Notes: generated by a model not told the origin, from the sequence alone. Positions 2,906 to 32,902 are shown, counted from the first letter of the stretch. The stretch: 64,000 bases of DNA from a bacterium (GCA_021787535.1 JAJYLR010000002.1:24556-88555); one strand, 5' to 3'. Program-made: numbers and translations.

Positions 2906-3601
2906 TTACTTATTTCTCGCCAGTACAAATCCCCAAACCCGTGTCGCGCCCATTTTGCGGATTTCATGAGCACAGGCATCCAGCGTCGCCCCGCTTGTCA
3001 CAAGGTCATCAACAATCATTACCTGAGCTCCGCTTAAATCCATTTTTTTGCCGGCGGCGAAGGATTTTTCTACGTTTTTGAATCTCTCCTTACGGTTCAG
3101 CTGAGTCTGAGGGGTCTTATACTTTGTACGTTTTAAGAGGTTCGGGTAAAACCTCATGCCGGTATGCGCCGCGAGAATCCGAGCCAGCTCTTCGGCTTGG
3201 TTATATCCCCGCCAAGCCAGTCTTTTAGGATTTGAAGGTACGCAAGTTAAAATAGTTTTTTGAGGAAAGTCGTTCAGATAGGGCCAGGCAATATCGGCTA
3301 AATCATCTTTGAGCGCCTTGATAAATTCATATTTATACGTGTGAATGGCAGTTTTGAGCGGTTCTTCATAGTGCGCTGCTACGTAAACACCGGTGAGAGA
3401 ACTTTTACAGCTCGGGCAAACTCTGCCCCGAACAGTGATTTTGTTGCAAAAGGGACAGTTTTGGGTTTTTAAAAAAAGAATCTTCGCCCGGCATTTCTCG
3501 CAGAAAAGGGTATCAAACTTGCCGCAAGACACGCATTTTTTTGGAAACATAATATCGAGCAAAAATTCAGTGATTTTCTCTTTTTTACTTTGATTTTTCA
3601 T
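2906..3601 (-). CDS. comF: ComF family competence protein (PRTase domain)
   Basis: N-terminal Cys-rich zinc finger (CVSCG..CEKC..CPFC..CPSC) plus PRTase motif VMIVDDLVTSGATL. Confidence 0.8.
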   Translation of the reverse strand: MKNQSKKEKITEFLLDIMFPKKCVSCGKFDTLFCEKCRAKILFLKTQNCPFCNKITVRGRVCPSCKSSLTGVYVAAHYEEPLKTAIHTYKYEFIKALKDDLADIAWPYLNDFPQKTILTCVPSNPKRLAWRGYNQAEELARILAAHTGMRFYPNLLKRTKYKTPQTQLNRKERFKNVEKSFAAGKKMDLSGAQVMIVDDLVTSGATLDACAHEIRKMGATRVWGFVLARNK

Positions 3602-4469: not shown

Positions 4470-5555
4470 ATGGATATAAAAGAGTTAATAATAAAGAGAT
4501 TGAATACTGCGGGTGAGGTTCGGGTTGCTGATATTGTAGATGAAACATCTTTCTCCCGAAAATACATTCACCGTTTTTTTGATGAACTTCAGAAGGAAAA
4601 TAAGATAGCAAAAATTGGCACGACAAAGGCTGCCAGGTATGTATTTTCCAGTCATCAAAAGGTTTTTGAAGCTAAAAAAAATATTATAAAGATAGATCTT
4701 CTTTTAAAAAATAGAGGGCTCAAAGAAGATTTGGTTGAAGATAAAATCAAGGAAGATACGGGTATCTTTATCGGATTATCAAAAGAAGTGAAGGCAGCGG
4801 CAGACTTTGCTTTCTTGGAAATACTTAACAACGCTATTGAGCACTCAAAAAGTGAAAACATTCGCGTCACTATGTCGAGGATGGAAAACAAGCTTATTTT
4901 TGACATTTTTGATTGGGGAGTAGGCGTATTTGCCAGTATTAGAAAAAAGAAGGGGCTCCAAAATGATCTTGAAGCTATCCAAGATCTTTTAAAAGGAAAG
5001 GAAACAACTAACCCGGCAAGACACACGGGGCAAGGAATTTTTTTTACTGCGCGTATCGCTGATAGGTTTATTCTATATAGTTCGAAAAAAAAGCTGATTT
5101 TTGATAATAATATCGATGATGTTTTCTTGAAAGATTCTCCCGCCAGAAAGGGTACAAGGGCTCATTTTGAAGTTGCTCTGGATACAAAGAAGAAATCGGA
5201 AGAAATTTTTAGGCGTTATTCGGATCCTGACTCTTATGAATTCTCAAAAACCGAGGTAATGATCCATCTCTACAAAATGGATATTGGCTACATATCTCGT
5301 TCTCAGGCGAGAAGAGTAACGGCGGGGCTTGAAAAATTTAAATCGGTCGTGTTGGACTTTAGCAGGGTGGATACGATTGGACAAGGTTTTGCCGATGAAG
5401 TTTTTCGCGTATGGCAGAAAAGGAATCCGAAAACAAGGATCTCCTATAAAAATGCTGATGAAAATGTGCAGTTTATGATAGAGCGTGCAAAATCAGATTT
5501 AAAGAATCATTTTGATCGGCACCAAAAAAAACAAAACAAAGATATTGACAAATGA
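4470..5555 (+). CDS. wHTH - GHKL (RsbW/SpoIIAB-like HATPase_c) - STAS-like (DUF4325-type) fusion regulator
   Basis: N-terminal winged-helix-like region. GHKL N-box EILNNAIEHS, G1 DWGVG, G2 GQGIFF. C-terminal about 100 aa STAS-like segment (VVLDFSRVDTIGQGFADEVF). Confidence 0.6.
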   Translation: MDIKELIIKRLNTAGEVRVADIVDETSFSRKYIHRFFDELQKENKIAKIGTTKAARYVFSSHQKVFEAKKNIIKIDLLLKNRGLKEDLVEDKIKEDTGIFIGLSKEVKAAADFAFLEILNNAIEHSKSENIRVTMSRMENKLIFDIFDWGVGVFASIRKKKGLQNDLEAIQDLLKGKETTNPARHTGQGIFFTARIADRFILYSSKKKLIFDNNIDDVFLKDSPARKGTRAHFEVALDTKKKSEEIFRRYSDPDSYEFSKTEVMIHLYKMDIGYISRSQARRVTAGLEKFKSVVLDFSRVDTIGQGFADEVFRVWQKRNPKTRISYKNADENVQFMIERAKSDLKNHFDRHQKKQNKDIDK

Positions 5556-5691: not shown

Positions 5692-6483
5692 ATGAAAACG
5701 ACAAAATGGATATTTGCATTAGCAGCACTCGTCATTATCGCAATTTTGGCTGTTACCACCACCGGCTGCGGTAGCGACAACGGCACCGCCCGGGCCGGCA
5801 ACTCACCGACAACCGAAAACAGCAGTGGCCCGAATGGCCAGAACGGCCCCAAGCCCGATAAGATCAGTATGCTGAGCGACAAGTGGAGTAAGGTGACCAC
5901 TGCCAAAGCCGCTCTGGAAAATGCGGTATTTGCGGCTGAAGCGAATGAAACCGGCGGAGACGCTTATTTCAAGGATAGCCAAGCGAGGGAATTCACAAAG
6001 AATGTCGATGACGCGCAAGCAGCATTCGATTCCGCCTTGAAAGAGTATATCCAGCTCGCATCCGGCGTTGATGCGCAAGGGCTTACTGACAGCGGCTTGC
6101 CGACCATTGACGGCGATCATCTGATATTGGACAACGACTTAAAGCCATCTTGGGATGCTGCCGTAGACGCAGACAAGCAGATACAGGTCTTGGCGGGGAC
6201 TATGTGCAAATCAAAATGCTATGCCCTCAGCGATCCAAAGTATCAGAGCCAAGTACAGGACGCTTTGAGCAAGTGGCAAACGGCCGCCAAAAACTACAAC
6301 GAGCAGGCAGCCAAGTTCAAGAGCGACCTTCTGGTTGCCTATAGCTACCCTGTATCGTTGGATGTCTCTTTCAAAATGAGCGCGATTGATGGAATTGATA
6401 AATATGGCGACACTGGATACACAACACCAATGGCATCCATTCGCTATGCGCTGGAGAATAACCAGCCGCTGCCCAGCGGTTAA
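5692..6483 (+). CDS. secreted lipoprotein, unknown function
   Basis: RBS AAGGAG before ATG 5692. Signal peptide plus lipobox-like VTTTGC. Ala/Asp/Gln-rich mature region. The ORF track start 5623 lacks an RBS. Confidence 0.6.
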   Translation: MKTTKWIFALAALVIIAILAVTTTGCGSDNGTARAGNSPTTENSSGPNGQNGPKPDKISMLSDKWSKVTTAKAALENAVFAAEANETGGDAYFKDSQAREFTKNVDDAQAAFDSALKEYIQLASGVDAQGLTDSGLPTIDGDHLILDNDLKPSWDAAVDADKQIQVLAGTMCKSKCYALSDPKYQSQVQDALSKWQTAAKNYNEQAAKFKSDLLVAYSYPVSLDVSFKMSAIDGIDKYGDTGYTTPMASIRYALENNQPLPSG

Positions 6484-6505
6484 GTAACAGCATTACATCT
6501 CAAAA

Positions 6506-6536
6506 AAAGGCCCCATTCCGGGGCCTTTTGTTTTTT
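6506..6536 (+). terminator. rho-independent terminator
   Basis: GGCCCC-attcc-GGGGCC hairpin followed by TTTTGTTTTTT. Confidence 0.75.
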
Positions 6537-6589
6537 CATTTTAGTTTTTATACTTTACAAAAGAAACAGAAAATCATTATAATACGCTT

Positions 6590-7150
6590 ATGAACACTTT
6601 TGGCATGAAGCTTGGCTCATTAACACTTGCTTTTTTGTTTTCAATGTTTGTGGTAATCTGTTTCCCCAGCATTCGGCTTCAAAGTGTTGACGCAGCAACC
6701 CCTCTTTGCAACAACACACAAGATCCTAATTCTCCACCAGGTTGTTCTCAAACACCCGTTTGCCCGTCGGGTAAGTATTATATACCTAGTCAAGATCCCA
6801 AAAAACCTGATGAAGCTTGCGTTCCACCCCCTTGTGATAATCAAAACCCTGATTATGATAATCCAGACTGTGTCAAACAAACTTTTAAATCAGTTTCCGG
6901 CGGATTTGATTTCGGCAATGCCAACAGCTTCAAAGATGTCGGCAAGACCATAATAGACACAGCCGGCGGTATTATTCTGGGAGTCGCAGTTCTCAAAATA
7001 ATTTTCGGCGGCATAATGTATTCAACCGCAGCCGGCAATCCCCAGCGAATAGAAGAAGCAAAGAGTCATATCTACTATGCCCTTATCGGCGTAGCCCTGC
7101 TTGTAGGCATGAATATTTTACTCTTTTTAATCGGAGCCCAAACATACTAG
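6590..7150 (+). CDS. T4SS pilin-like protein (VirB2/TrbC-like), paralog 1, with Cys/Pro-rich N-terminal extension
   Basis: Signal peptide. C-terminal TM - MYSTAAGNPQRIEEAK - TM module shared with the two following ORFs. Confidence 0.55.
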   Translation: MNTFGMKLGSLTLAFLFSMFVVICFPSIRLQSVDAATPLCNNTQDPNSPPGCSQTPVCPSGKYYIPSQDPKKPDEACVPPPCDNQNPDYDNPDCVKQTFKSVSGGFDFGNANSFKDVGKTIIDTAGGIILGVAVLKIIFGGIMYSTAAGNPQRIEEAKSHIYYALIGVALLVGMNILLFLIGAQTY

Positions 7151-7157
7151 CTATCCC

Positions 7158-7517
7158 ATGAAAATGAAAGAGTTAGAAAGATACAAAAAAATATTTTCCA
7201 GAACAACATTTCTTGCCCCTGGGCTTTATGTTCCTAACTTTGGTGGTCCGCTTTTGGGTGGGTGCAATATGAATGATCCAAATACTGGTGATATGCAATG
7301 TATTGTCAACAATATCACAAGTTGGGTCCTTGGACTTGCCGGCCTTGTTATAGTGTTAATGATTGTTATAGCCGGTGTCAGATATATTGTTTCGGCTGGC
7401 AACCCAAATCAAACTGAAGGCGCAAAAAAAACTCTTGTCGGCGCTATAATAGGGCTTATAATAATTATATTGGCAAAGGTTTTGATATCAATCGTCGTGA
7501 AACTTATTACAGGATAA
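7158..7517 (+). CDS. T4SS pilin-like protein (VirB2/TrbC-like), paralog 2
   Basis: TM - RYIVSAGNPNQTEGAKKTL - TM. Same conserved core as neighbours. Confidence 0.6.
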   Translation: MKMKELERYKKIFSRTTFLAPGLYVPNFGGPLLGGCNMNDPNTGDMQCIVNNITSWVLGLAGLVIVLMIVIAGVRYIVSAGNPNQTEGAKKTLVGAIIGLIIIILAKVLISIVVKLITG

Positions 7518-7616
7518 TCTCAGCTTTTAGCAAATTGTTAAATTAATTAAACAAACTAAGTTAGCTCTTTCTCAATTAATGAATACTGAGAAGAGACATA
7601 AAGGAGGTATAAAAAA

Positions 7617-7949
7617 ATGAAAGCAAAAATTACAGCGGCATCGATGGCAATAAGCCAGTTTATTTTAGCTGCTAGTGTGCGAGCGCAATCAAACCCAAAT
7701 CCACTACCGCAACCGCACAGTTCAGATCTAGGGCCAATTCTGCAAAACGTGATAAACTGGATTTTGGGCATAGCCGGTTTGCTGGCAGTGCTTATGCTTG
7801 TTATCGGCGGTATCAGATATGTGATTTCGGCCGGCAATCCGTCACAGACAGAGGGAGCAAAGAAAACCATTATCTACTCACTTGTAGGCATAGTGGTCAT
7901 CATACTCGCCGTTGTCTTGGTCAATACGGTTATAGGCCTGTTTCACTAA
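7617..7949 (+). CDS. T4SS pilin-like protein (VirB2/TrbC-like), paralog 3
   Basis: Strong RBS AAAGGAGG. Signal peptide. TM - RYVISAGNPSQTEGAKKTI - TM. Confidence 0.6.
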   Translation: MKAKITAASMAISQFILAASVRAQSNPNPLPQPHSSDLGPILQNVINWILGIAGLLAVLMLVIGGIRYVISAGNPSQTEGAKKTIIYSLVGIVVIILAVVLVNTVIGLFH

Positions 7950-8001
7950 AATCATCGGTAGAGGATAGAAATACCAAATTGTTCTTGCTCTTTAAACGCT
8001 C

Positions 8002-10017
8002 GTGTTATATATTTTTAATATGAGGGTGAGTTTATCTGAAAAAGCATTTATAAAGAGATTATCAAAAAAACGGACTGCTCAGGTTCTGCTTCCGTTTTTT
8101 TTGTTAGTAATTTTCCTGGGTGTTGCTATAACCCCGCATATTGCTTTTGCTTCCTGGTGGAATCCCATTGACTGGGTACAGGATTTTATCTCCGATTTGC
8201 TTATTGCCTTTTCTACTGCTCTTTATTTTCTAGGTTTTGGTTTAGTGAGGATAGGCGTCGATTTTACTACCTTCTTGATTAGCACGCCTGCCGTTTCTGA
8301 AAAATGGCAGCTGATGCGAAACTTTACGCTGACCATTTTCGGACTCTTCATAATCATTATCGCCGCCATGAATATCCTGAAAGTCAAGATAGAGGAGTGG
8401 GGAGTAAATAAAATGATCCCCAAGCTTGCTCTGGCTGCCTTTGTGGTCATGTTTTCAAAGTATGTCTGCATTACCATAGTGAACTTCTCTAACATTATCT
8501 CAAGTGTCGTGGCATCCTCAATGAACTTTAATCTCTTTCAGCCATTCAGCCAGTTGGGCGACATGTTTGCCAACTTCTGCCAGGACTGTGCCTCTGGACC
8601 AAAATTATATGCAGCTTGGCTCCTTTTATTGGTCTCTGTAATCGGCTTCATTTTTTTAGCTGCTTTATTCCTTATCTTGCTTATAAGGGCCCTGGTTCTG
8701 ATATTGCTGATTGTAGTCTCGCCACTTGCTTTCGCGCTTTATGTCTTACCCTGGACTAACAAGGTCTTCACTAAGTGGTGGGACATGTTCCTGAAGTGGA
8801 CTTTCTTCTATCCGATATGTCTGACAATTCTTGTCATAGGGGTATCTCTGTCTATGGACGCGCATAATACCGGTGGCAATCAGGTAAACAGTATTATGTC
8901 AGGGATTCTAAAATCGGTACCCTTGTTCGGTAACGATGCTGCGACTCAGATGGCTCCAGTCATGGCCCAATTCGCCTTTACTATGATAGCTTTTCTTACT
9001 ATACCTCTGGCAATGATTCTGCCGCTTTCACTTCTAGGGCAGGCAGGTAAAATGATCAACAATGCAATGAAAGGAGCCGGTAAGGCCGCGGGTGGGAAAG
9101 CATATAAGAGCAGTGTCATCCCCGGTGTCAGACGCAGTCCGAAGGCGTTGCTGCAAGCAGGAATGCGCAGAGGACTTCGGCCGTTTGGCTCCCGCGGCCC
9201 GAAACTCGGCTATGGCTATGACAAGATGCGAGATATGAATAGGGAGATGGTGAAAGAGATTAGTAAGACTCCTTTAAGCAAAGAGGAGAGGCGAAACTAC
9301 GCCAGAGGCCTTTTAGGCCGTGGTTCTCCTGCATTTAATAATCTATCAAACGAGAAACAGGCATGGATTAGGGATTTTGAAACAAAAGGCGGGGGCAGGA
9401 ACGAGATGATAGATTACCTTGCAGACAAAGGGGAAATAAATGCCGGGGTTATTGCGAATCCGCAAGTACAGCAGCGCTTGCAACAAACTGGAGACTGGAA
9501 TAAAGCCATAAGAGACGGTAAGCTTTTCCATGTTAATATGCACGATTCCCAAGGTGGAGAACTACAATATTACGGCAATGGAGATCCAATCATGATGCCA
9601 ACTAATCTAAATGAAGAAGGTCTCGGTCCAGTATCTGAAATGATTACCCCCAGCATTAATCAACTTCAGACCACCCAGCTAGCTGGACCGCAAGCCATAA
9701 CAGATGAAAACCTAGGACTTCTTGCCCGCGATCCTACCAAAGCCAAGTTTTTGTCAGATTATCGAGATTCTATTCATGATAGAATTGGAAATGTCCAAGA
9801 TGGTGATGTGCATCAACAAACAGCGGCTCAAATAAACGCTGAACTTCAAAGAAAGGAAAATGTCATCAACAACCTTCTTGGGCAAGCAGCACCGGGCGGA
9901 GGACAGGGACAAGGCGGTCAAGCGCAAGGACAACCTCAAGTGATAGTTCCTCATGTTGGACAAGGAAATCGCGATAACCCCCATCAGGATGATATCCCGC
10001 CAAACAGAAGATTATAA
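8002..10017 (+). CDS. VirB6/TrbL-like polytopic membrane protein with Gly/Gln-rich C-terminal tail
   Basis: At least 6 predicted TM helices, large hydrophilic C-terminal extension ending in GQGQGGQAQGQ low complexity. Position between pilins and VirB3/VirB4. Confidence 0.5.
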   Translation: MLYIFNMRVSLSEKAFIKRLSKKRTAQVLLPFFLLVIFLGVAITPHIAFASWWNPIDWVQDFISDLLIAFSTALYFLGFGLVRIGVDFTTFLISTPAVSEKWQLMRNFTLTIFGLFIIIIAAMNILKVKIEEWGVNKMIPKLALAAFVVMFSKYVCITIVNFSNIISSVVASSMNFNLFQPFSQLGDMFANFCQDCASGPKLYAAWLLLLVSVIGFIFLAALFLILLIRALVLILLIVVSPLAFALYVLPWTNKVFTKWWDMFLKWTFFYPICLTILVIGVSLSMDAHNTGGNQVNSIMSGILKSVPLFGNDAATQMAPVMAQFAFTMIAFLTIPLAMILPLSLLGQAGKMINNAMKGAGKAAGGKAYKSSVIPGVRRSPKALLQAGMRRGLRPFGSRGPKLGYGYDKMRDMNREMVKEISKTPLSKEERRNYARGLLGRGSPAFNNLSNEKQAWIRDFETKGGGRNEMIDYLADKGEINAGVIANPQVQQRLQQTGDWNKAIRDGKLFHVNMHDSQGGELQYYGNGDPIMMPTNLNEEGLGPVSEMITPSINQLQTTQLAGPQAITDENLGLLARDPTKAKFLSDYRDSIHDRIGNVQDGDVHQQTAAQINAELQRKENVINNLLGQAAPGGGQGQGGQAQGQPQVIVPHVGQGNRDNPHQDDIPPNRRL

Positions 10018-10048
10018 ATCTCTCCGGTTAACTATTTAAAATGAAGAC

Positions 10049-10711
10049 ATGCAGTACAAAATACCTCAAGAGTTTAACGTCGAAGACAAGATAATCGGTC
10101 CCTTTACTTTAAAGGGATTCGGTTTCATTTTCGCTGCAGCCGTCGTAGCTTTAGTATGCGTCGTTTCTCTGTCAAAGCATATCGGCTTCATACCTTCCGT
10201 TTTGATTGGCGCACTCTTGGGCTCGGTCTTTATAATCGTCGGATTTATCCCCTTCAACGGCCGGCCGATGTATACCTTCGCATCACCCTTTATAAACTTT
10301 TTGATAAAGCCGAGACAAAGGGTCTGGAGAAGAGAGGTTGAGACGGCTAAAAAACCTCAAACAGCTAATAAACCCGCAGCAACAACCGAAGCAAAACCGG
10401 GTAATACACCGGCAAAAGCAGATGTCTCATCAATTGCAGAAAAGATCGAAGACATCGCTCTCACAGTAGACACCGGCGGAGCATATGCCGGGAGCCAGGC
10501 GGAAACAGCAGGTGATATCCTAGAGAAAGGAAGTCCTACTGTAGAGCAGGCGCTTCAGAAAGCGCAGGCCGAGGCTAGCCGAAAGAAACAGCGGCCAGAA
10601 CCGGCCATATCAGAAATGGCTAGCGTAGATCCGGACAAAAAGTTCGGCTATGAGCGTCCAGATACTTCAAAATATAAAATTGATGAGGAGTTAAAAAAGA
10701 ACAGGCAATGA
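10049..10711 (+). CDS. VirB3/PrgI-like small membrane protein
   Basis: Two N-terminal TM helices immediately upstream of VirB4. Hydrophilic Ala/Lys/Glu-rich C-terminus. Confidence 0.45.
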   Translation: MQYKIPQEFNVEDKIIGPFTLKGFGFIFAAAVVALVCVVSLSKHIGFIPSVLIGALLGSVFIIVGFIPFNGRPMYTFASPFINFLIKPRQRVWRREVETAKKPQTANKPAATTEAKPGNTPAKADVSSIAEKIEDIALTVDTGGAYAGSQAETAGDILEKGSPTVEQALQKAQAEASRKKQRPEPAISEMASVDPDKKFGYERPDTSKYKIDEELKKNRQ

Positions 10712-11457
10712 ATCCTTTTAAGAAAAAACAAACTGGGGCAAACCCGCAGTCATTCGAAAGCACCCAGAAGTACCTGGCCATCGACCAGATTAAAGACGAT
10801 GTTTTGCTAATGAAAGACGGCTCTTTGAGAGGTGTGCTTATGGTTTCCAGCATTAATATGTCTCTGCGCTCGGAACAAGAACAGTCATCAATCATTTATG
10901 CCTATCAAAACGCTTTAAATTCTTTGGATTTTCCTGTACAAATCCTAGTGCAATCAAGAAAAGTTGATCTCACCTCCTACATGGCGATACTGGAAAAAGA
11001 ATATGAGAAGGAGGCGCCCGGACTTTTGAAAGATCAGATTCAAGAATACATTAGCTTCCTGCAGCAGATCTTGGAAAGCGTCAATGTCATGGACAAACGT
11101 TTTTTCGTGACAGTTCCATACTTTCCCAATGTCATTCAGGAAAGCTCAAAAGGCGTACTTTCTATAGTGGGTTTAGGGAAAAAGGCGAACCCCGTCTCCC
11201 AAAGCCAGCGCAACTACAGTATAAACCTTGACCAGTTAAACCAGAGGTTGGATATCGTTACCTCCCTTCTTTCCACTATAGAGCTAAAAGCATCGCGCCT
11301 GCCTACAGAGGCCCTTATAGAGCTTTTTTACGTCTGCTACAATCCTGAAACAGCCGGCCATGAGCATATAAAAAATCTGGACAGCTTTGGGGCAAAGTAC
11401 ATTACAAGGAGAGAATCGCTTGGAGGTAATACGATAGGTGGCGGGTATGCTGGATAA
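10708..11457 (+). CDS. VirB4/TrbE-family ATPase, N-terminal domain fragment (frame 1)
   Basis: Pattern YLAIDQIKDDVLLMKDGSLRGVLMVSSIN..SEQEQ resembles the VirB4 N-terminal region. Overlaps the next ORF by 20 nt in a different frame. Confidence 0.5.
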   Translation: MNPFKKKQTGANPQSFESTQKYLAIDQIKDDVLLMKDGSLRGVLMVSSINMSLRSEQEQSSIIYAYQNALNSLDFPVQILVQSRKVDLTSYMAILEKEYEKEAPGLLKDQIQEYISFLQQILESVNVMDKRFFVTVPYFPNVIQESSKGVLSIVGLGKKANPVSQSQRNYSINLDQLNQRLDIVTSLLSTIELKASRLPTEALIELFYVCYNPETAGHEHIKNLDSFGAKYITRRESLGGNTIGGGYAG

Positions 11458-13240
11458 GTTTCTGAAGAAGAGCCAGCCAACCCAGGAAGAGATCCTTGCC
11501 ACGCAAAAGGTGCAGGCCTTCCAGCGGGGAATAAGCACAATACGCGATCTTATAGCCCCTGCTTCATTTGCAAAAAACTTTAACTATCTGCAGATTGGGG
11601 AAACATATGCCAGAACTCTCTTCGTATATGAATATCCCAGATTTTTGTATTCCGGCTGGATATCTCCCATTATTAATATTGACATTCGACTTGATCTTTC
11701 AATATTTATCTATCCTGAAGATTCCCAGGATGTGGCCAAAAAACTGCGCGCCAAATCCACTCAAGTAGAATCCTCGATCAATATGGAGGCAGATAAAGGG
11801 CTGGCGAGAAATCCCACGCTTGAAGCGACTTATCAGGATATCGAGGAACTGAGAGACAAACTTCTCACCGGACAGTCCAAAATGTTCAAACAGGGTATGT
11901 ATATCACGGTTTACGAAGACTCGCTGGACGAGCTGAACGAATGCACAAAGATTTTGGAAAATATGCTTGGAACAGAAATGGTTTTTACCAAGCATGCTTC
12001 CCTTCAAATGGAGGAGGGTTTTAACTCCACGCTGCCAATGGGGCTGGATCAGCTCATGTACAATCGCAATATGGACACAGAGGCAATCTCCGTATCTTTT
12101 CCTTTTGTTTCATCGACTTTAACCAGTAACGAGGGTATTCTCTACGGAGCCAACAAGTCAAACAACAGTTTAATTATCTTCGACCGCTTTAAGCTGCAAA
12201 ACTACAATTCCGTTGTTCTGGCTTCCTCGGGAGCAGGAAAATCATATACAGTGAAGCTGGAGATATTAAGACAGCTTATGTTTGACGCGGATGTTATAGT
12301 GATTGACCCTGAAAAAGAGTTTGAAACTTTATGCCAAACTGTTGGCGGATCATATATAAATATCCATTTGAATTCAAAGGAGGTCGTAAATCCTTTCGAC
12401 CTACCCCAAAATCTGACCGATTATGATGACCAAAAAGATGCCCTCCGAAGCAATATCATTATTCTGACGGGGCTCCTTAGAGTTATGATGGGCAAACTCA
12501 CAGATGAGGAAAGCAATATCCTGGACAAGGCGCTGGTGGAAACATATGCTTCGAAGGGTATAACAGAAGATCCGTCAACCCATCACCTGACTCCGCCTAT
12601 CATGAGCGATTTAAAGAGTATCTTAGAAAGCATAAACGGAGGCGAGAGTATGGCCCTTCGCCTGGGCAAATTCACGGAAGGGACATTCTCGGGTCTCTTT
12701 AATGATTACACCAACATTTCGCTGGGCAATAGGATGGTCTGCTTTTCTATCCGAGACCTGGAAGAGGATTTGAGGCCGATTGCCATGTATTCCATACTGA
12801 ACTTCATCTGGAATAAGGTTAAAAGCGATAAGAAAAAAAGAATTCTGGTGGTTGATGAGGCCTGGACTATGATGAAATATGAAGACTCGGCCCAATTCCT
12901 TTACGCCATAGCAAAAAGAGGCAGAAAATATTACCTGGGCATGACTACTATCGGCCAGGACATCGGCGACTTTTTAAAGAGCGAGTACGGGAAACCTTTG
13001 ATTTCAAACGCTTCAATGGCTCTGCTTTTGAAGCAGCATCCTTCGCAGGTTGAGCTTATTAAAGAAGTATTCGACCTAACAGATTCTGAGAAAAACTATC
13101 TGCTGCAATGCGGAGTCGGTGAAGGGCTTTTTGTCGCCGGGCTAAACCATGCTCTAATACAAATCATCAGTTCGGAAAAAGAAGACTCAATCGTCACTAC
13201 TAATCCCGAGCAGTTAAAATCAATGCAGGGAGGAGCTTAA
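11438..13240 (+). CDS. VirB4/TrbE/CagE-family T4SS ATPase (C-terminal 600 aa, frame 2)
   Basis: Walker A LASSGAGKSYTVK, Walker B ILVVDEAWTMM, IAPASF..IGETYARTLFV segment typical of the family. Confidence 0.8.
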   Translation: MAGMLDKFLKKSQPTQEEILATQKVQAFQRGISTIRDLIAPASFAKNFNYLQIGETYARTLFVYEYPRFLYSGWISPIINIDIRLDLSIFIYPEDSQDVAKKLRAKSTQVESSINMEADKGLARNPTLEATYQDIEELRDKLLTGQSKMFKQGMYITVYEDSLDELNECTKILENMLGTEMVFTKHASLQMEEGFNSTLPMGLDQLMYNRNMDTEAISVSFPFVSSTLTSNEGILYGANKSNNSLIIFDRFKLQNYNSVVLASSGAGKSYTVKLEILRQLMFDADVIVIDPEKEFETLCQTVGGSYINIHLNSKEVVNPFDLPQNLTDYDDQKDALRSNIIILTGLLRVMMGKLTDEESNILDKALVETYASKGITEDPSTHHLTPPIMSDLKSILESINGGESMALRLGKFTEGTFSGLFNDYTNISLGNRMVCFSIRDLEEDLRPIAMYSILNFIWNKVKSDKKKRILVVDEAWTMMKYEDSAQFLYAIAKRGRKYYLGMTTIGQDIGDFLKSEYGKPLISNASMALLLKQHPSQVELIKEVFDLTDSEKNYLLQCGVGEGLFVAGLNHALIQIISSEKEDSIVTTNPEQLKSMQGGA

Positions 13241-13243
13241 GCA

Positions 13244-15124
13244 ATGGCTGCGGAGCTGCAAGAACCAGAGGAACTGGAAGAAGAGCCCCAAGAAGATGAA
13301 GGGCTTGGCGACACCGTCCGTGATGCGGATCAGGACTTTAAAAATCTAAACAAGTTCAGAAATAAGGGCAAGGGAGGAGAAGGCGCATCAGATGCCGCAA
13401 AGGGTGGAGCAAAAGCTGCCGGAAAAGAAGGAGCTGAACTGGCCGCTGAAGAAGAAGCAGCCCACATAGCCGAAAAAAGGGTGGCAGCTGAGGCAGCGGC
13501 AAGGTTAGGGGCGGAGGCCATCGGCGCGATTTCAACCGGGGTTGGAGTGGTGCTTGCTATTCCCGATCTTGTCCGGCTGGCAAAAAGCAAGTGGGGGAAG
13601 ATAACAATTGGTTCCTGCTGTGTTTGTGCGTGTTTGCCGTTTGCAGGAATATTGTTTGGCGGCATGATCTTGATTGCCGCCATTGGTGGTGGCCAAAGCG
13701 GAGACTCTAACAATCAATGCCCTTATATTCGCAGTGATGGAGAGGTGATCGAAGATTGGAGTTATGAGTTGGTAGATGGTAACAAAGAGAATTATAAAAC
13801 TGCCCTCCAAGATGCTGAAGCAATTACACATGTACCCGCTGCTATTCTGGCAGCTATTGATTATGAAAAGTACGCTAACGGTTATCAAGACGATAGAGAT
13901 AATCCACACAGAAGTCATGAACAAGCATTAATTGAGATAGGCAAAAAGGTACAGGAAACAAATGAATTGAGAGATAAATCGACAGGCAAGCTAGTTCTTG
14001 ATGAGAATGGAAAGCCCATAGATACCGTCTGGACTGATTCGGTTAGCAAAGATAACCCCAATATTGCCACTGGAATAGCTATCTTATCAAACTATCGATG
14101 CCCTGAGGTGGCAGAATCCTTGGCAGATCAAGCTAACCCACCCATAGCCGGGAATCAAAAAAATGAGTTCATAAATGAGTTTTGTTATTCATCCAAAGGG
14201 GGACCGGGTAACAGCACCTATACAGCAATGGACGATGATTGGATCATGCGAGATTTTGTTGACGATTCAGTAGCTGGTGAAATTCAAAAATTAAATCCTG
14301 TGCAGTCGGTTCCTTACTTAGGCACCTTTGTGGGAGGCGTTTTAAAGGGAGTGTCCACAGCTAAACAATTACTTGACTCATTGGCAAACGTGCCGGGAGC
14401 AGTTTGGTCTGCAAAATGCCACATAGGAGTAGGAAATTGCGAAACACCAGAGATTGGCGCGGCTACATGGCTAAAGGTATATCTTGATGGCGATGAACTG
14501 ATAAAGAGCCACACAGTAACAGAAAATGGGAAAAAGAAGACCATTCCAGGATGTCCTATCAAGAAATGGACGGGTGGCAGTAGCAACGGTTCTCCAAGTT
14601 CAGGTAGTCCAGGCCAATGCGTTAACGGCATTGCCCAAGTTCCCGAGTTTTTCCAATTTTCTCCACCCTGGGCATCTATACCTATAGATGAGTCGGGAGA
14701 CAACGTCCGAGCAGGCGGTTGCGGACTCACTTCACTGACAATGGTGTTAAACTGGTATGGCAAAGGTGTTACACCGGCCGATACTATTACTTGGCTGGAT
14801 GCCAATCCCCCTGTTTGCTATTCAGGTGGCTGGACCGGCTGCATGTATCCAAAAGTAGCACAACACTGGGGTATGAATGCCGGATTTAATACCATAGGAT
14901 GGGCAGAGGCAGAACAAAAACTTAGGAACTGCCAACCTGTTATTGTGGCAAATAATAGCGGCAGTTGGGCTTATACATGGCATTTAGTGGTTCTAACAGG
15001 AATTGACAGCAACAACAATGTCCATGTTAACGATCCGTTTCCTCGGGATATGAAAACTGGCCAATACACCGTGCCTCTTGATACAATAAAATCAACCATA
15101 GGAAATATCATCGATGTATACTGA
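13244..15124 (+). CDS. membrane-anchored cell-wall hydrolase with C39-like papain-fold cysteine peptidase domain (VirB1/PrgK functional analogue)
   Basis: Acidic N-terminus, TM helices, C-terminal GGCGLTSLTMVLNWYG (Cys nucleophile) and WHLVVLTGID..VHVNDP (His/Asp). Confidence 0.55.
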   Translation: MAAELQEPEELEEEPQEDEGLGDTVRDADQDFKNLNKFRNKGKGGEGASDAAKGGAKAAGKEGAELAAEEEAAHIAEKRVAAEAAARLGAEAIGAISTGVGVVLAIPDLVRLAKSKWGKITIGSCCVCACLPFAGILFGGMILIAAIGGGQSGDSNNQCPYIRSDGEVIEDWSYELVDGNKENYKTALQDAEAITHVPAAILAAIDYEKYANGYQDDRDNPHRSHEQALIEIGKKVQETNELRDKSTGKLVLDENGKPIDTVWTDSVSKDNPNIATGIAILSNYRCPEVAESLADQANPPIAGNQKNEFINEFCYSSKGGPGNSTYTAMDDDWIMRDFVDDSVAGEIQKLNPVQSVPYLGTFVGGVLKGVSTAKQLLDSLANVPGAVWSAKCHIGVGNCETPEIGAATWLKVYLDGDELIKSHTVTENGKKKTIPGCPIKKWTGGSSNGSPSSGSPGQCVNGIAQVPEFFQFSPPWASIPIDESGDNVRAGGCGLTSLTMVLNWYGKGVTPADTITWLDANPPVCYSGGWTGCMYPKVAQHWGMNAGFNTIGWAEAEQKLRNCQPVIVANNSGSWAYTWHLVVLTGIDSNNNVHVNDPFPRDMKTGQYTVPLDTIKSTIGNIIDVY

Positions 15125-15674
15125 TAGAAAAATTTTGCTTCTCGCCGGCCTGTCTGTTTTTATGATTCTGTTTTTAGTGTTTTCTATCATATTTTCAAGA
15201 GTAAAAAATCTGGAAATAACAACAAGTCCAAGCGGTGCGAGTTATAGCATTCAAGGCGATTCATCGGGTACAACACCTGTAAAACTCCGGCTCTCACCGG
15301 GCAAGCATATAATTAAAATAACAAAGGGTTCCTACAAAACGATCAATGCTAATATAAATATCCCCTTCTGGGGCTTTCAGAAAATACACTATGATTTGGA
15401 ATACAATGGGCCTAAAAAATCCGATACGCAAACCTCTCTCCAAGAAAGAATTGACACGCGTGAAAAATATAATCATGATTTTCCATTCGCAAAGTATCTA
15501 CCCTTTCATGGAAATAACTTTTACATGACGCCGCCCTCCAATGACGGCACGCTTAATATATATTACAGCCCAACCAATGAAGCGCAAGGAAAAGCTGAGG
15601 CCGAGACGTGGCTTCAGCAGCATCAAGTTAATACAGCTAATCTAAAGATCAATTGGCTTCCAGGTGTAGAATAG
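15114..15674 (+). CDS. PEGA domain membrane protein
   Basis: N-terminal TM plus ITTSPSGASYSIQGDSSGTTPVKLRLSPGKHIIKITKGSYK, a PEGA-like beta-sandwich motif. Confidence 0.45.
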   Translation: MYTDRKILLLAGLSVFMILFLVFSIIFSRVKNLEITTSPSGASYSIQGDSSGTTPVKLRLSPGKHIIKITKGSYKTINANINIPFWGFQKIHYDLEYNGPKKSDTQTSLQERIDTREKYNHDFPFAKYLPFHGNNFYMTPPSNDGTLNIYYSPTNEAQGKAEAETWLQQHQVNTANLKINWLPGVE

Positions 15675-15703
15675 TTATAATAAAAATATAAAGGAGAGTC
15701 TCA

Positions 15704-16975
15704 TTGTATTCACCAATTGAAAATAAAAAAGAAAAAGTGGAATTCCTAGTAGCATTTTTTATAACTTTTCTTTTTATTTTTATTCCATTGACAATAACAT
15801 TTGCTGGTAATACAAAAAGGTTTTTCTCTACCCCACCCGGTGCTTTAAATCTGGATCAATGTAATGGACCTTGGGCTGTAACGTTCAGCGATAAAACAGA
15901 TGATCCCAATGTTAAGAGTGACGCTGCAATAGAAAAAAACAAGAGAAAACTCGCTGATGCTATAAACGCCGAGATTGCCAAATTCCCTAAGTCTAAGTTT
16001 TTAAAGACAAACGGCGGACTAGATGATCCGGGTAAAGCTTTTGTTGATGCCAGTATCGAAAATAATATCAACCCTATACTTTTAGTGGCTATGGCTTACA
16101 CCAATTCGGATATGGCGAGTACGACGAATGCGGCCCTGAAATGCGGCAACCCATGGGGCCAGCAGCCCATAACCGGCAAACCAACCTGTCAGACTAATGA
16201 TGGTGGCCAAACCCTTTCATGGTATGAATATAACAAAGATCATCAGTATAATGAGGGCATGATTGGCGATGAGGCAAAGAGAGTTTTTCAAACATATCTG
16301 AACCAGACCGACTGGAACCCGCCACTTATCACTCTGGATGATTTCGTACAAAGATATGACGAGAAAAATCCTTGGAGAGAAATGGGCGTGCCAGATCAAA
16401 GTAAATCAATCGCAGACAACTATAAAACTGTTTACAATGACATATTAACATCAAAGAATGGGAAAGATACCCTTGTGTGCTCTCAGAGTGGAAATGGTGG
16501 GGGGGATTTAGCAAATGCCGACTCCCTGAGCGTCAAAGGCATAGAATGTGTTCTAGATGCAACAGGCCATGGCTACAATCTAAAGCCTTATGCTCAGGAT
16601 TTGTATAAAGCTGCTCATGATTTTCATGTTAACCCCCTTTATTCCCTTGCGCAATTTGATAAGGATAGTTCCCTAGGTACAGCAGGAGCCGGCCTCGACA
16701 ATAAAAATCCAGGAAATATAGGTTGCGACCAAGGATACACCACAGGAGCTGGTGTGCAATACAGCTGTGCTGACTTTGCCGTTTTTAATACCTTTGGTGA
16801 TGGAATGAGGGCTCACAACTGGTTAATCAGAACTGAATATCTAGATCAGGGACTTACCACAATTGAAGCCATTATCAACAAGTATGCCCCTCCTAGTGCA
16901 AATGACACCAACCAATATATTCAAGATGTGAAAGATTTTATGAGTAAATATGGGCCAATGTGTTCCGGCCAATAA
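15704..16975 (+). CDS. membrane-anchored glucosaminidase/muramidase-like peptidoglycan hydrolase (two repeats)
   Basis: N-terminal TM. Two segments with an L-L-h-A-x-A..NS..S pattern (NPILLVAMAYTNSDMAS; NPLYSLAQFDKDSSLG) reminiscent of the FlgJ-type glucosaminidase domain. Confidence 0.4.
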   Translation: MYSPIENKKEKVEFLVAFFITFLFIFIPLTITFAGNTKRFFSTPPGALNLDQCNGPWAVTFSDKTDDPNVKSDAAIEKNKRKLADAINAEIAKFPKSKFLKTNGGLDDPGKAFVDASIENNINPILLVAMAYTNSDMASTTNAALKCGNPWGQQPITGKPTCQTNDGGQTLSWYEYNKDHQYNEGMIGDEAKRVFQTYLNQTDWNPPLITLDDFVQRYDEKNPWREMGVPDQSKSIADNYKTVYNDILTSKNGKDTLVCSQSGNGGGDLANADSLSVKGIECVLDATGHGYNLKPYAQDLYKAAHDFHVNPLYSLAQFDKDSSLGTAGAGLDNKNPGNIGCDQGYTTGAGVQYSCADFAVFNTFGDGMRAHNWLIRTEYLDQGLTTIEAIINKYAPPSANDTNQYIQDVKDFMSKYGPMCSGQ

Positions 16976-16989
16976 GGAGGTAAAACTAA

Positions 16990-17508
16990 ATGAGAGATAA
17001 AAAAATAATTATTTTATTGTTAGTTATAGGAGCTTTTATAATTATATTCTTATTTGCACTCATTTTTTTGCACCCCAAAAGAAACACTCCCCAAAAACCC
17101 AGTAACAGTTCAGCTACCCAACAAAGAAGTCCTGAGGAAATATTTGCAGAGGATTTTGTAAAGAAATTTGTTACATATAGCTACCAAGATACTTCTAACT
17201 ATATACCACAGCTAACCCCATATATAGCGCCGAAATACCTAGCCAATTTTCAAAAAAGATTCAGATTACCTAAAAATATAACACCGGACATAAGGAATAA
17301 TTATAGTAAATATCAGTCAACCATTCAGGTACTAACTTTGGCAAAAAGCGATTCCAGACAAACGATATATGTTGAGTATGTTGCTTCAAAAGTTGATGCC
17401 CCTAATCGCCCCCAAGAATTCAAGGACACAAATGCAGTAACAGTTGTATTAGACAAGATTAATGGCAAATTTTTAATTACCGCTGTAGATTTTTCCACTC
17501 CCCAATAG
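16990..17508 (+). CDS. membrane-anchored protein, unknown (possible VirB8-like)
   Basis: Single N-terminal TM plus about 140 aa extracytoplasmic domain. Last gene of the T4SS-like cluster. Assignment speculative. Confidence 0.3.
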   Translation: MRDKKIIILLLVIGAFIIIFLFALIFLHPKRNTPQKPSNSSATQQRSPEEIFAEDFVKKFVTYSYQDTSNYIPQLTPYIAPKYLANFQKRFRLPKNITPDIRNNYSKYQSTIQVLTLAKSDSRQTIYVEYVASKVDAPNRPQEFKDTNAVTVVLDKINGKFLITAVDFSTPQ

Positions 17509-27096: not shown

Positions 27097-29137
27097 TTTC
27101 AGTATTGTTCACAAGAATAATATTATTCCAATCATAATTTAAAAAACAGAAAACTTCTGGTGAGCTAATCCATCGCTTTTGTCCGTTCTCAAGAACGTAA
27201 ACTGGGGGATCACTCCCTTTCAAAAGGGTTCCATCGGGATAATGCATGTCTGAAGCAGAAGAATAAGAGGATATCTCAGATGGAGAAATTACCACTATAT
27301 TCCTCCAAAAAAACTGAGAATTGAAAATATTCGGATCCCCAATCCATCTTTTTTGACCATTGCTAATTAAATAGACATTTGGATTATCTACTGCTTTCAC
27401 TAAGGTACTATTGGGGTGTAGCGCGGTGTTTGTAACATTTTCACCAGATGGATAGTATGCAACCTCTGCGTCCGAAGTATATACGAGGTTATCCCAGTTG
27501 TATCCAAGACTATTAAAGACATCAGGACTGGTAATCCATCGCTTTTGTCCATTCTCAAGAACGTAAACCTGTTGAGTGCTACCCTTGATTAATGTTCCAT
27601 CTGGGAAATGTAGAGAAGGTCCATCACTATATCCTTTGATTCTGCCCTCTGATACTGTTAAAACTCTTTCTGACTTAAGATTTAACCTGAAAAATTGAGG
27701 ATCTCCAACCCATCTTTTTTGACCATTGCTAATTAAATAGACATTTGGATTATCTGGAGACTTTACAAGAGTTCCATTTGGATTGAATTTGTTATTATAG
27801 TTTAACGAACTTCTTATATCCATTCTTCCAAAACCATATTCAAATGAGAAGTTACCATCAGGGATTTGTAATTTTTCTCCGGAAGATATAATCATGTCCA
27901 TGATTTCATTGTTTGTTGAACTTGGAAACTCAGAAAAAAGCAAACTTGCTTCGCCGGTTACCTCTGGTGCTGCTAACGATGTTCCATCGGCGGTAGCATA
28001 ACTATTTGTAGTATAGGTATTACCTTGCCAAGTAGTTGAAGAAGACAAGATATTAACTCCAGGAGCCATAACATCAAGTTCTGGACCATAGTTTGAACCC
28101 CAACCATAGTTAGCTGTAGTAACCCTCCTATCTTGATTATCTGTAGCACCAACTGCAATTACATCTGAGTAGGCGGCTGGATAATCCACACCCTGAATAT
28201 CATCATTTCCTGCAGCAGCCACTAAAACAACCCCCTTCCCATAAGCATAATTGATTGCATTTTCCAAAATAGTATCGGGTCCTTGTGATTGTAATTCTCC
28301 AAAACTCATATTAATAACCTTTGCACCATTGTCAGCCGCATACTCAAGAGCTAAGGCAACCTTATCGCTGGTACCACTACCATTATTGTCCAGACATCTT
28401 ACCGGCATAATTTTGGCATTCCAATCAATACCAGTAATACCTTTACTGTTGTTGGCATTCGCAGCAATCACTCCAGCTACTAGGGTACCGTGCATATAAG
28501 CAGATCCACCCCCACTTGCCGGAGAAGGATCGTTGTTACCGTCAACAAAATTCCAACCATATTTATCGTCAACATAACCATTATTATCATCATCAACACC
28601 TGATACGCCATTCACTTCTTTGGTATTTTGCCAGATTCGTCCAGTAAATTCTTCATGTATTGGATGCGCACTATCCATACCAACGTTTATCCCCGTATCA
28701 AGTACTGCGACAGTAACAGAGTTACTACCTGTTGCTCCGGTAGCCCATGCTTGGTCTGCCGTTATCTTTGGAATGTTCCACTGGTTTGTATAAAGAGGAT
28801 CATTAATAACTGCTGTAGCATTATAGTGCTTTATAGGCTGCTTATTGTTAATAAGTAAGGGTTCAGTAATAAGGCCCAGAATGCTGACATTTTTTCTGCG
28901 AATCTTATATAGACCAGGTGAAGATTTTAGCTTGAGAGCTTGAACATCATAACCTTCATTTTTTAGAGTTTGTATGTTCTGAGGGGCTATTTTGCCAAAG
29001 AATGTGGTTTGGTAACTACCTGCAAAAGTTTTATCATACAAGAACAAACAAAAAAAGAAAATGCAGAGCAAAATAAGGGTTTTTTTATAATTAAATAATT
29101 TTAAAATCTTTGTTGACATAAACATTATTAATGACAA
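27065..29137 (-). CDS. secreted subtilisin-like (S8) serine peptidase with four C-terminal about 65-aa repeats
   Basis: Catalytic Asp (VAVLDTGI), His ([11 protein letters not shown]), Ser ([11 protein letters not shown]). Signal peptide. C-terminal repeats with core [18 protein letters not shown]. Confidence 0.8.
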
Positions 29138-29173
29138 TAAAAATTTATCATAAAACTATTCTTTTATTCAAGC

Positions 29174-29201
29174 TTGACAATGTGCTCAATCATGCTAGAA
29201 T
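29174..29201 (+). promoter_or_regulatory. sigma70-type promoter in divergent intergenic region
   Basis: TTGACA, 16 nt, TAGAAT about 75 nt upstream of ATG 29278. Confidence 0.5.
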
Positions 29202-29277
29202 GCAAAAGCAAACAAACATAAAATTTATGATAAGTATCATTAGTTTATTTAAATTATTTTCCAAGGGTAAGGGGGTA

Positions 29278-32025: not shown

Positions 32026-32107
32026 CATCAGAATACATATGTCTTGTCAGATTAAGATATAATTGACACTGTTGGCAATTTTTGCTATATTTTAACTTGT
32101 TTTCAAG

Positions 32108-32902
32108 ATGGAAAAAATAAAACAATACAATTACTTTGGATTAACCAGAGAACTGGCTCTTACTGATTTTAAACTTAAATACCAGGGCTCTTTTTTTGGA
32201 TATTTATGGTCCCTAGCTAAGCCTTTAATGCTTTTTGGAGTTCTTTACCTCGTGTTTACTAGATTCTTTAGATTAGGTGGTTCGATACCCCACTATCCCG
32301 TTTACTTATTATTGGGCATAGTTCTTTTTAACTATTTCGTAGAGTCAACATCAGCTTCAATGGGGTCTATAGTAGGTAAAGGTGATCTTATTAGAAAGGT
32401 TTACTTTCCAAGAATTATACTGACGGTTTCTACATCGATCACAGCTCTGATAACTCTATTACTTAATATGATTGTAGTATTTATTTTTATGATATTATCA
32501 AAAACGGTTCCCACTATAGATACACCCTTCTTAGTTCTACTTTTATTGGAACTCTTCGTTTTGGTATCAGGTGTTTCCTTATTTCTTGCCTCACTATTTG
32601 TGCGCTTTAGAGACATTGCTCATATTTGGGAGGTTTGTAATCAAGTACTTTTCTATGCGGTTCCTATAATCTACCCCCTTAGTTTTGTTCCTGGTAGAAT
32701 TGGAAAAATACTATTATTAAATCCCCTTGCTCAAATTATTCAAGATTCGAGATTCGTATTAATTACCCATCAAACAGCTACGGCTGGGTCTATGTTACAT
32801 TTTCCATATGTTTTTATTCCATATACTCTACCCTTCATAGTTTTTGCATTTGGGTATTGGTTTTTTCAAAAATCAGCAGCTAAGTTTGCGGAAGAGGTTT
32901 AA
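32108..32902 (+). CDS. wzm: ABC-2 type polysaccharide/teichoic acid export permease (Wzm/TagG-like)
   Basis: 6 TM ABC-2 architecture directly upstream of the cognate ATPase. Confidence 0.8.
   Translation: MEKIKQYNYFGLTRELALTDFKLKYQGSFFGYLWSLAKPLMLFGVLYLVFTRFFRLGGSIPHYPVYLLLGIVLFNYFVESTSASMGSIVGKGDLIRKVYFPRIILTVSTSITALITLLLNMIVVFIFMILSKTVPTIDTPFLVLLLLELFVLVSGVSLFLASLFVRFRDIAHIWEVCNQVLFYAVPIIYPLSFVPGRIGKILLLNPLAQIIQDSRFVLITHQTATAGSMLHFPYVFIPYTLPFIVFAFGYWFFQKSAAKFAEEV

Follow-up and report, generated by a model that had tools for sequence, protein, structure and literature searches.

We analyzed a 64,000-nt stretch of bacterial DNA (GCA_021787535.1 JAJYLR010000002.1:24556-88555; hereafter 'the window', to whose positions all coordinates refer unless another locus is named). 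Positions 6590-17508 form a single operon of 12 genes, all on the + strand, which very probably encodes a chromosomal, non-conjugative type IV secretion system (T4SS) of the Patescibacteria type, derived from MPF_FATA and representing the positional orthologue of SEML1_0004-0019 of Southlakia epibionticum. A reading of the sequence alone had favored a chromosomal, non-conjugative T4SS of the candidate phyla radiation over an integrative and conjugative element (ICE), and this is now supported by the flanks typical of a replication origin (oriC), by the lack of conjugation genes in ~84 kb and by collinearity with related loci. As to function, we lean tentatively towards a pilus or tube as the main product, one that may act as a conduit for host contact and penetration and, most likely, for the uptake of host material. 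Identity and conduit mechanism together are, in our judgement and with good confidence, the best explanation of the locus as a whole. The system as such has been published; new here are the VirB8-like assignment, the complementarity of TrsD and VirB4, the swapping of hydrolase heads and the pilin-bearing relatives in monoderm bacteria.

The VirB4 ATPase (597 aa, 11447..13240, +; its open reading frame (ORF) opens at GTG 11438) matches the CD1110-family model NF045971 (8.6e-113, above cutoff) as well as Pfam P-loop_TraG (1.6e-23) and CagE_TrbE_VirB (4.3e-5); Pfam matches were counted as support when above the gathering score. Walker A (GAGKS, residue 262) and Walker B (VVDEAW, residue 468) are both intact. 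VirB4 has at least 8000 homologues; for the best 120 listed the median length is 599 aa, and the named members among these 120 are Patescibacteria, an assignment made from the matches and not from a formal tree. The lineage has been sampled sparsely: identity reaches 85% and 78% to two metagenome-assembled genomes and is at most 56% to everything else, with ~50-56% to named Saccharimonadia. The DNA-import model CedB scored 48.7 bits, far under its cutoff of 700. The locus combines the features by which a Patescibacteria-type T4SS is recognized, namely a ~600-aa VirB4 of this clade, TrsD and PrgI directly upstream of it, a VirB2 array, no relaxase or type IV coupling protein (T4CP) nearby and a position near dnaA.

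The window is the oriC region of an ultra-small bacterium (CPR/Patescibacteria) and carries DciA, recF, dnaN, dnaA, rnpA, yidC and jag; its genes are ordered tRNA-Ser, ComF, Hsp20, pilins, VirB6, PrgI, TrsD, VirB4, hydrolases and PEGA protein, recF, dnaN, dnaA. Our locus counts rest on 81 virB4 loci (80 related loci plus the window's own contig). The operon's locus is collinear with at least 20 others, and the same order recurs in Saccharimonadia-like loci. SEML1_0001-0022 of S. epibionticum ML1 also shares it, including the flanking tRNA-Ser, ComF, Hsp20 and recF-dnaN-dnaA. The sequence-only reading had proposed a comparison of synteny, which gave this collinearity with S. epibionticum and the Saccharimonadia-like loci, and profile searches, in which T4SS_pilin, PrgI, CagE_TrbE_VirB, Peptidase_C39_2 and Glucosaminidase all matched above the Pfam gathering score.

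Functions needed for conjugation were not detected. Pfam families of T4CPs, relaxases, integrases and transposases were absent from window ORFs of at least 110 aa, as the sequence-only reading had noted for a VirD4-like ATPase, relaxase and integrase. It had also named a relaxase or VirD4 with an integrase just outside the window as pointing to an ICE; none of them occurs among the genes called in the 10 kb past each window end, so that ~84 kb of the 90-kb contig were covered. These flanks hold housekeeping genes (LeuRS, CdaA, LepA, FtsH, MurJ, SOD). No att-like flanking direct repeats were found, and the ~84 kb thus show no ICE hallmark (relaxase, coupling protein, integrase/transposase, att), with no search aimed at oriT. 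GC content is uniform (0.40-0.46) without an anomaly at the locus. Among unannotated ORFs, the only Walker A-like match lies near the C-terminus of a 615-aa ORF. The conjugative relatives that we examined have a T4CP no more than ~3 kb from virB4, and their elements carry a relaxase; pCDC3875 belongs to type MOBP, and in Embleya a replication-relaxation gene lies ~2.5 kb from virB4.

The operon is compact, with intergenic gaps of at most 99 nt and overlaps at three junctions (PrgI/TrsD 4 nt, TrsD/VirB4 11 nt, C39/PEGA 11 nt). A terminator-like hairpin (6505..6529, +; 10-bp stem containing 6 GC pairs, then a run of T) ends the upstream lipoprotein gene and marks the 5' boundary; it is the strongest terminator-like site in 5.5-18 kb. 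It is followed by the region's best match to a sigma-70-like promoter (TTTACA-18-TATAAT, 6554..6583, +; 11/12 positions), a function that is inferred. As the strongest hairpin and the best promoter lie just 5' of pilin 1, we regard the left boundary as the genuine operon start. The -10 hexamer stops 6 nt short of the pilin 1 ATG and no Shine-Dalgarno sequence was seen before 6590, so pilin 1 may be translated from a leaderless mRNA. Strong AGGAGG sites precede pilin 3 and the VirB8-like gene. At the right end, the last gene is convergent with DciA and the 3' ends overlap by 36 nt. The genes that the sequence-only reading had listed stand in position and strand, but its list was incomplete: it gave 10 genes instead of 12 and omitted the TrsD-like gene. 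A scan for transmembrane (TM) segments placed anchors or TM segments on PrgI, VirB6, the VirB8-like protein, the PEGA protein and both hydrolases.

The operon opens with three tandem pilins, all of which pass the gathering score of PF18895 (T4SS_pilin); a failure to match such profiles would have spoken against the sequence-only reading. In pilin 1 (186 aa, 6590..7150, +; T4SS_pilin 1e-7, NF045849 1.1e-7), a signal peptide precedes an extension of ~75 aa rich in Cys and Pro, after which comes a two-helix core of the VirB2 type. The extension had been described before, and the composition of residues 36-110 (19% Pro, 6 Cys) confirms it. Pilin 2 (119 aa, 7158..7517, +; T4SS_pilin 1.3e-14, TrbC 2.3e-5) has no canonical signal peptide and may instead start at 7269, an alternative gene call that yields 82 aa. 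Pilin 3 (110 aa, 7617..7949, +; T4SS_pilin 1.6e-16, TrbC 1.2e-7) has a strong Shine-Dalgarno sequence and, like pilin 1, a signal peptide as read from its sequence. It also matches NCBIfam NF045849, the Mbov_0395 family of pilin-like conjugal transfer proteins of mycoplasma ICEs (1.4e-11, 43.9 bits, cutoff 40). The cores of pilins 2 and 3 are 53% identical, and that of pilin 1 is 31-39% identical to the others. Accordingly graded is the core motif earlier ascribed to all three, which is exact in pilins 2 and 3 (RY-x-x-SAGNP-x-QTEGAKKT) and looser in pilin 1 (MYSTAAGNPQRIEEAKSH). Across related loci, pilin arrays comprise 1-9 divergent paralogues, some with Cys-rich extensions. Pilin diversification, cell-cell interaction and DNA uptake are hypotheses already present in the literature (PMC12102498, PMC11665869, PMC12857230).

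The pilins are followed by a polytopic protein (671 aa, 8002..10017, +) with ~7 TM segments in aa 23-349 and a 320-aa hydrophilic tail rich in G, Q and N, the layout of an 'extended VirB6'. Its match to TrbL is weak (E=0.0057 on aa 1-400), as is a precomputed match to TrbL_3; 7 of 27 homologues match TrbL, the best at 2.8e-7, and R229 and a P241 motif are invariant. An hhalign comparison with the CD1112-family VirB6 aligned only a 25-column motif (5% probability), and sequence searches of the PDB gave chance-level matches at most while the profile search was empty. The label 'VirB6-like' of the sequence-only reading fits topology and gene position, with sequence support that is weak to moderate.

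The next gene encodes a PrgI/VirB3-like protein (220 aa, 10049..10711, +; Pfam PrgI 1.4e-6, 29.2 bits, cutoff 27) with a 2-TM hairpin and a charged tail, which in addition shows a weak alignment to the mycoplasma VirB3-VirB4 fusion model (positions 14-96). It is followed by the TrsD-like protein (249 aa, 10708..11457, +; TrsD NF041427 6.4e-7; VirB4_plasma 93-218, 7.2e-9; precomputed PF26593 TraC-like). On the NCBIfam VirB4 models this protein covers positions 93-218 (mycoplasma ICE VirB4), 18-136 (TIGR00929) and 7-129 (CD1110), and the 597-aa VirB4 covers 280-891, 239-728 and 177-728, respectively. Because these profile positions are consecutive and non-overlapping and hhalign found no similarity between the two proteins, TrsD is predicted to correspond to the very N-terminus of a full-length VirB4, to be encoded separately and to supply the piece that the 597-aa VirB4 is missing. 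A separate TrsD-like ORF lies directly 5' of virB4 in 61 of the 81 loci, the window's contig included. Sequence and profile searches of the PDB with the TrsD-like protein gave chance-level matches only.

Three other explanations of this arrangement were rejected. The overlap of the 249-aa and ~600-aa ORFs in different frames could have indicated a frameshifted VirB4, but ~600 aa is the usual length in the best 120 homologues and the 249-aa gene is separately conserved. A paralogue of an N-terminal domain retained in the 597-aa VirB4 is contradicted by the hhalign null and the complementary NCBIfam coordinates. Finally, P0116 (759 aa) is not a TrsD-VirB4 fusion, its extension being low-complexity sequence and not TrsD.

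The last gene of the operon (172 aa, 16990..17508, +), previously described as a small membrane protein, does encode a membrane protein and can now be assigned by its predicted fold, an N-terminal TM helix followed by an NTF2-like domain. An AlphaFold2 model built on the alignment of its relatives reached a predicted local distance difference test score (pLDDT) of 92.1. Sequence identity to solved VirB8s is 8-15%, no Pfam or NCBIfam profile matched (including VirB8, PrgL and TcpC) and sequence searches of the PDB gave chance-level matches only. The protein is thus predicted to be VirB8-like by fold and context, and not by sequence. A word-indexed search returned only the protein itself, but it is no orphan, as a full HMMER search gave 24 relatives. 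Neither is it a PEGA paralogue, since BLASTP similarity is confined to the TM segment; in one of the 24 relatives, the TM helix and the conserved domain are separated by a PEGA domain. Its homologues always come after the glucosaminidase homologue. With a hidden Markov model (HMM) of the domain, the ~200-aa ORF 5-77 nt 3' of virB4 is also picked up in a further 17 loci, Magasanikbacteria and Falkowbacteria among them; the first-pass E-values are weak, but the matches extend across the whole domain. The same HMM detects a PEGA fusion in L003, the relative with 78% identity. A VirB8-like subunit modelled with this confidence would complete the minimal monoderm channel set.

In ABY1-like loci (L023, L026, L029, L048, L052, L064, L081; ~11.8-13 kb), virB4, the VirB8-like gene and comF follow one another in this order on the same strand with short gaps. 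This comF linkage is recurrent and differs from the divergent ComF-Hsp20 beside the pilins of the window.

Between virB4 and the VirB8-like gene lie the two peptidoglycan hydrolases and the PEGA protein that the sequence-only reading had recognized, all of which score above their gathering thresholds. The first hydrolase (626 aa, 13244..15124, +; Peptidase_C39_2 1.9e-14) is composed of a charged N-terminus rich in Ala, Glu and Gly, a TM region, a conserved middle module and a C-terminal peptidase whose Cys493 and His580 are intact. In relatives, the same N-terminal module after virB4 carries a glucosaminidase, M15_4 plus NlpC/P60 or M23 head (window 13244-15124; L004 11759-13735, L007 13151-14824, L040 14802-16418, L068 16129-17724). 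As other wall-hydrolase heads are swapped in at the same position, the C39_2 head is predicted to act on the cell wall, a role that the domain swapping supports, and the interchangeable heads suggest adaptation to different cell walls. The PEGA-domain protein (186 aa, 15114..15674, +; PEGA 1e-9) spans the membrane once; PEGA proteins recur 3' of virB4 in 17 loci. The second hydrolase is a membrane-anchored GH73-type glucosaminidase (423 aa, 15704..16975, +; Glucosaminidase 6.7e-8, 33.7 bits, cutoff 30.2) that matches the N-terminus of the phage protein 9vvp. Its family relatives add Amidase_2, GDSL, Phage_lysozyme2 or M23 domains. A predicted glycosidase (GH73) and a predicted peptidase (C39_2) domain thus adjoin virB4, as in monoderm VirB1-like hydrolases; the equivalents in relatives are NlpC/P60, M23, M15_4, Amidase_2 and Phage_lysozyme2 domains. 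Pfam found nothing on the N-terminal and middle parts of the C39 protein, the N-terminal half of the glucosaminidase, the VirB6 tail or the PEGA protein's C-terminus.

How might these parts work together? VirB4, VirB3, VirB6, VirB8 and VirB2 are the components required for pilus biogenesis, and a T4CP recruits cytoplasmic substrates in nearly all exporters. Extrapolating from established VirB-type biology, we propose that one promoter would drive all 12 genes and that the pilins would enter the membrane as two-helix hairpins. A VirB4 hexamer, with TrsD as its detached N-terminal piece, would be tethered via PrgI/VirB3 to a platform of VirB6 and the VirB8-like protein and, driven by ATP, would extract pilins and polymerize them into an extracellular tube. 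The C39_2 and GH73 hydrolases and the PEGA protein would open and span the bacterium's own wall and possibly that of the host.

We favor a conduit for uptake over T4CP-dependent export because neither a coupling protein nor a relaxase was found in the ~84 kb and because the T4CP of S. epibionticum is dispensable. In that organism, the only one for which a requirement of the system for epibiotic growth is known, comEC and the T4CP homologue proved dispensable, unlike the T4SS itself, which is essential (PMC12102498, PMC12857230), and the genes essential by transposon sequencing include those for the PEGA protein SEML1_0005 and for lysozyme/peptidase proteins (Wang et al., 2023, PMC10633639). 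A cultured relative that takes up RNA from its host has tubular structures that penetrate the latter (bioRxiv 10.64898/2026.06.21.733656), and a conduit agrees with speculation in PMC12857230 and PMC11665869. Few systems are known to be indispensable to the host-dependent life of Patescibacteria; the T4SS is one.

Several points weigh against this proposal. With ~84 kb of the genome covered, its remainder may encode a T4CP, and VirD4-like matches are reported far from virB4 in most Patescibacteria. The VirB6 call is weak by sequence, and the NTF2-like gene of S. epibionticum (SEML1_0012) is non-essential. The topology of the C39 protein is ambiguous (2 or 3 TM segments) and its extracellular peptidase head is assumed. 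In the glucosaminidase, Asp321 (16664-16666) occupies the position of the usual catalytic Glu, which is Glu in L003 and L004 and Asp in the diverged L086 and L088; its activity may perhaps be altered.

The operon could instead encode an effector exporter that, in line with speculation on Saccharibacteria, injects proteins such as toxins or wall-remodelling enzymes into or onto a host bacterium. T4SSs mostly export substrates, the system of S. epibionticum was suggested to 'may instead export proteins' (Wang et al., 2023, PMC10633639) and the unusually rich hydrolase set of the operon could itself be cargo. We nevertheless consider export unlikely: the ~84 kb hold no T4CP to recruit cytoplasmic substrates, candidate effector genes are not evident in the operon and the hydrolases' own N-terminal TM or signal anchors suggest Sec-dependent placement. 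Somewhat less likely again is an organelle for adhesion only, in which variable pili attach the epibiont to its host and nothing passes through. VirB2, VirB3, VirB4, VirB6 and VirB8 are what pilus biogenesis requires, and 1-9 divergent, partly Cys-rich pilin paralogues suggest surface recognition, but type IV pili already provide Saccharibacteria with adhesion and motility and are separately essential (PMC11665869), and the conserved comF linkage hints at nucleic-acid handling. A conjugative element with relaxase, T4CP and integrase elsewhere, or its decayed remnant, is largely refuted and highly improbable: although this VirB4 family otherwise occurs on conjugative plasmids of Bacillota and Actinomycetota (30-37% identity) and the pilin-VirB6-PrgI/TrsD-VirB4 module recurs on an Embleya plasmid, where a T4CP and a relaxase-like gene come after it, the locus lies within oriC synteny conserved across classes, shows no att repeats, GC shift or integrase, retains all 12 ORFs intact with their motifs, and VirB4 transfer between Patescibacteria classes is rare (PMC12102498).

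The conduit reading can be extended to a bolder proposal, which we regard as conceivable but doubtful in its entirety. Here, a VirB2-type tube would breach the host wall as a T4CP-independent import conduit for host nucleic acids or nutrients, the hydrolase heads (C39_2, NlpC/P60, M23, M15, GH73) and divergent pilins would determine host range, and the pilin/split-VirB4 module would have been inherited from pilus-bearing monoderm conjugation systems. If true, such inheritance from extant systems of Bacillota and Actinomycetota would contradict the textbook picture of Gram-positive T4SSs as lacking VirB2 pili.

Relatives outside Patescibacteria bear on this last point. The closest plasmid-borne VirB4s come from Bacillota and Actinomycetota (CD1110 family, 30-37% identity). 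On an 898-kb non-mobilizable replicon of Pontibacillus sp. ALD_SL1 (L090, NZ_CP062975.1 351362-361354), two pilins, a 779-aa polytopic protein, PrgI, TrsD and a 621-aa VirB4 are found with a 1050-aa M23 hydrolase, and no T4CP or relaxase lies within 10 kb. Priestia megaterium pFDU301A (L093, NZ_CP045273.1) carries a pilin, PrgI, TrsD and a broken VirB4. On a linear plasmid of Embleya sp. (L092, NZ_CP108778.1 273700-285500), a pilin-like ORF that lacks annotation is joined by genes for a VirB6-like protein, fused PrgI-TrsD and VirB4, and after these come a T4CP, the relaxase-like gene and NlpC/P60. Separate TrsD-like genes are present on 34 PLSDB plasmids. Given these three modules, the NF045849 pilin matches and the plasmid TrsD genes, the pilins and the split-VirB4 module are not exclusive to Patescibacteria. 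To our knowledge, the textbook view is that Gram-positive (monoderm) T4SSs are devoid of VirB2 pili, a view that the pilin-bearing monoderm modules question. They also bear on a published suggestion that the pilins were co-opted from diderm systems. Pilin-bearing, TrsD-split relatives in Bacillota and Actinomycetota could offer culturable models, as well as an evolutionary origin for a 'Gram-positive T4SS pilus'.

Upstream of the operon, a PilB-type ATPase and ComF are both present, as noted from the sequence alone. ComF (2906..3601, -; DZR_2 + Pribosyltran) is a conserved neighbour of the machine and at most a putative part of it; ComF-Hsp20 adjoins the pilin array in ~16 related loci and also in S. 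epibionticum. Between Hsp20 and the pilin array lie genes for an HATPase_c_2 + DUF4325 (STAS-like) protein (4470-5555) and a 263-aa lipoprotein-like protein (5692-6483). Homologues of the two are absent from all 80 related virB4 loci, and the pair therefore looks like a lineage-specific insertion. Two tRNA-Ser genes (534-637 and 940-1046; anticodons TGA and GCT) appear to stem from an old tandem duplication, since they share ~20 nt past the 3' end of the tRNA; ComF of S. epibionticum is also bordered by tRNA-Ser. Further downstream, GC content drops to 0.33-0.35 at 32000-38000 over a polysaccharide cluster (ABC-2/Wzt transporter, radical SAM/SPASM, and a 977-aa methyltransferase+GT2+GT4 protein), perhaps an island for surface glycans that was gained by horizontal transfer or evolves fast. 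ORFs of 964, 539, 615, 328 and 296 aa (29131-32025, 50993-52612 (-), 54759-56606, 56603-58388) had no Pfam match at E<=1e-3.

Among known systems, the H. pylori ComB system for DNA uptake and B. pertussis Ptl likewise lack a coupling protein and a relaxase, and ComB provides a precedent for import. Both differ in being diderm systems with VirB7/VirB9/VirB10 cores, and sequence kinship does not extend past VirB4. Parallels also exist in the mycoplasma ICE, whose CDS15-CDS16-CDS17 (Mbov_0395, 0396, 0397) encode a small two-TM pilin-like protein, a polytopic protein and VirB4 and so parallel pilin-VirB6-VirB4; PrgI, TrsD and VirB4 of the window are collinear along the 894-position Mbov_0397 profile. 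In contrast to the window, this element is conjugative, encodes a T4CP (CDS5) together with a DDE transposase, and lacks both wall hydrolases and VirB8 (PMC12857230), their absence being explained by the wall-less host.

With monoderm MPF_FATA systems (CTn2/CD1110-type, pCF10, pIP501, pGO1/pSK41), the locus shares a CD1110-family VirB4, PrgI, a putative VirB6/TrbL-like protein, a hydrolase after virB4 and a VirB8-like NTF2 protein (PrgL, TraM, TcpC); in pGO1, TrsD is likewise a separate gene. Unlike the window, these systems have a T4CP adjoining the T4SS genes and a relaxase, and they are mobile and not fixed at oriC. C. botulinum pCDC3875 differs further in its full-length VirB4 (797 aa), and no pilin was detected there.

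The locus also resembles the systems of the monophyletic Patescibacteria VirB4 clade described as nested in MPF_FATA (Quinonero-Coronel et al., 2025, PMC12102498). In that study, TrsD, PrgI and VirB6 were abundant, 441 arrays of 2-11 pilin genes were found, relaxases were nearly absent, T4CP genes were rarely near virB4, and virB4 lay near dnaA, dnaN and rnpA and was linked to comF. The window agrees in the position of virB4 near dnaA/dnaN/rnpA, in TrsD, PrgI, the putative VirB6 and VirB2 arrays, in the missing relaxase and in comF. It departs in two respects: VirB8 was reported almost only from ABY1, whereas we find a protein of predicted VirB8 fold in a Saccharimonadia-like arrangement, and VirB2 pilins were treated as absent from MPF_FATA, whereas we find pilin-bearing relatives in Bacillota and Actinomycetota.

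The cluster of S. epibionticum (SEML1_0004-0019) is likewise without relaxase or coupling protein (PMC10633639), and the two loci differ in detail. The window has three pilins on the operon's strand and one VirB6-like gene, S. epibionticum six pilins on the opposite strand and two VirB6-like genes. The C39_2 protein and separate GH73 hydrolase contrast with SEML1_0006, which joins two lysozyme-like domains to a Cys protease, and with SEML1_0007, a 1113-aa DD-peptidase. The NTF2/VirB8-like gene ends the operon in the window and lies between the VirB6 genes in S. epibionticum, and the HATPase/DUF4325 and lipoprotein genes as well as DciA between operon and recF are found only in the window. The locus thus adds a divergent lineage (VirB4 at most 56% identical to named classes) with the same architecture, which reinforces the idea of an ancestral system fixed at oriC.

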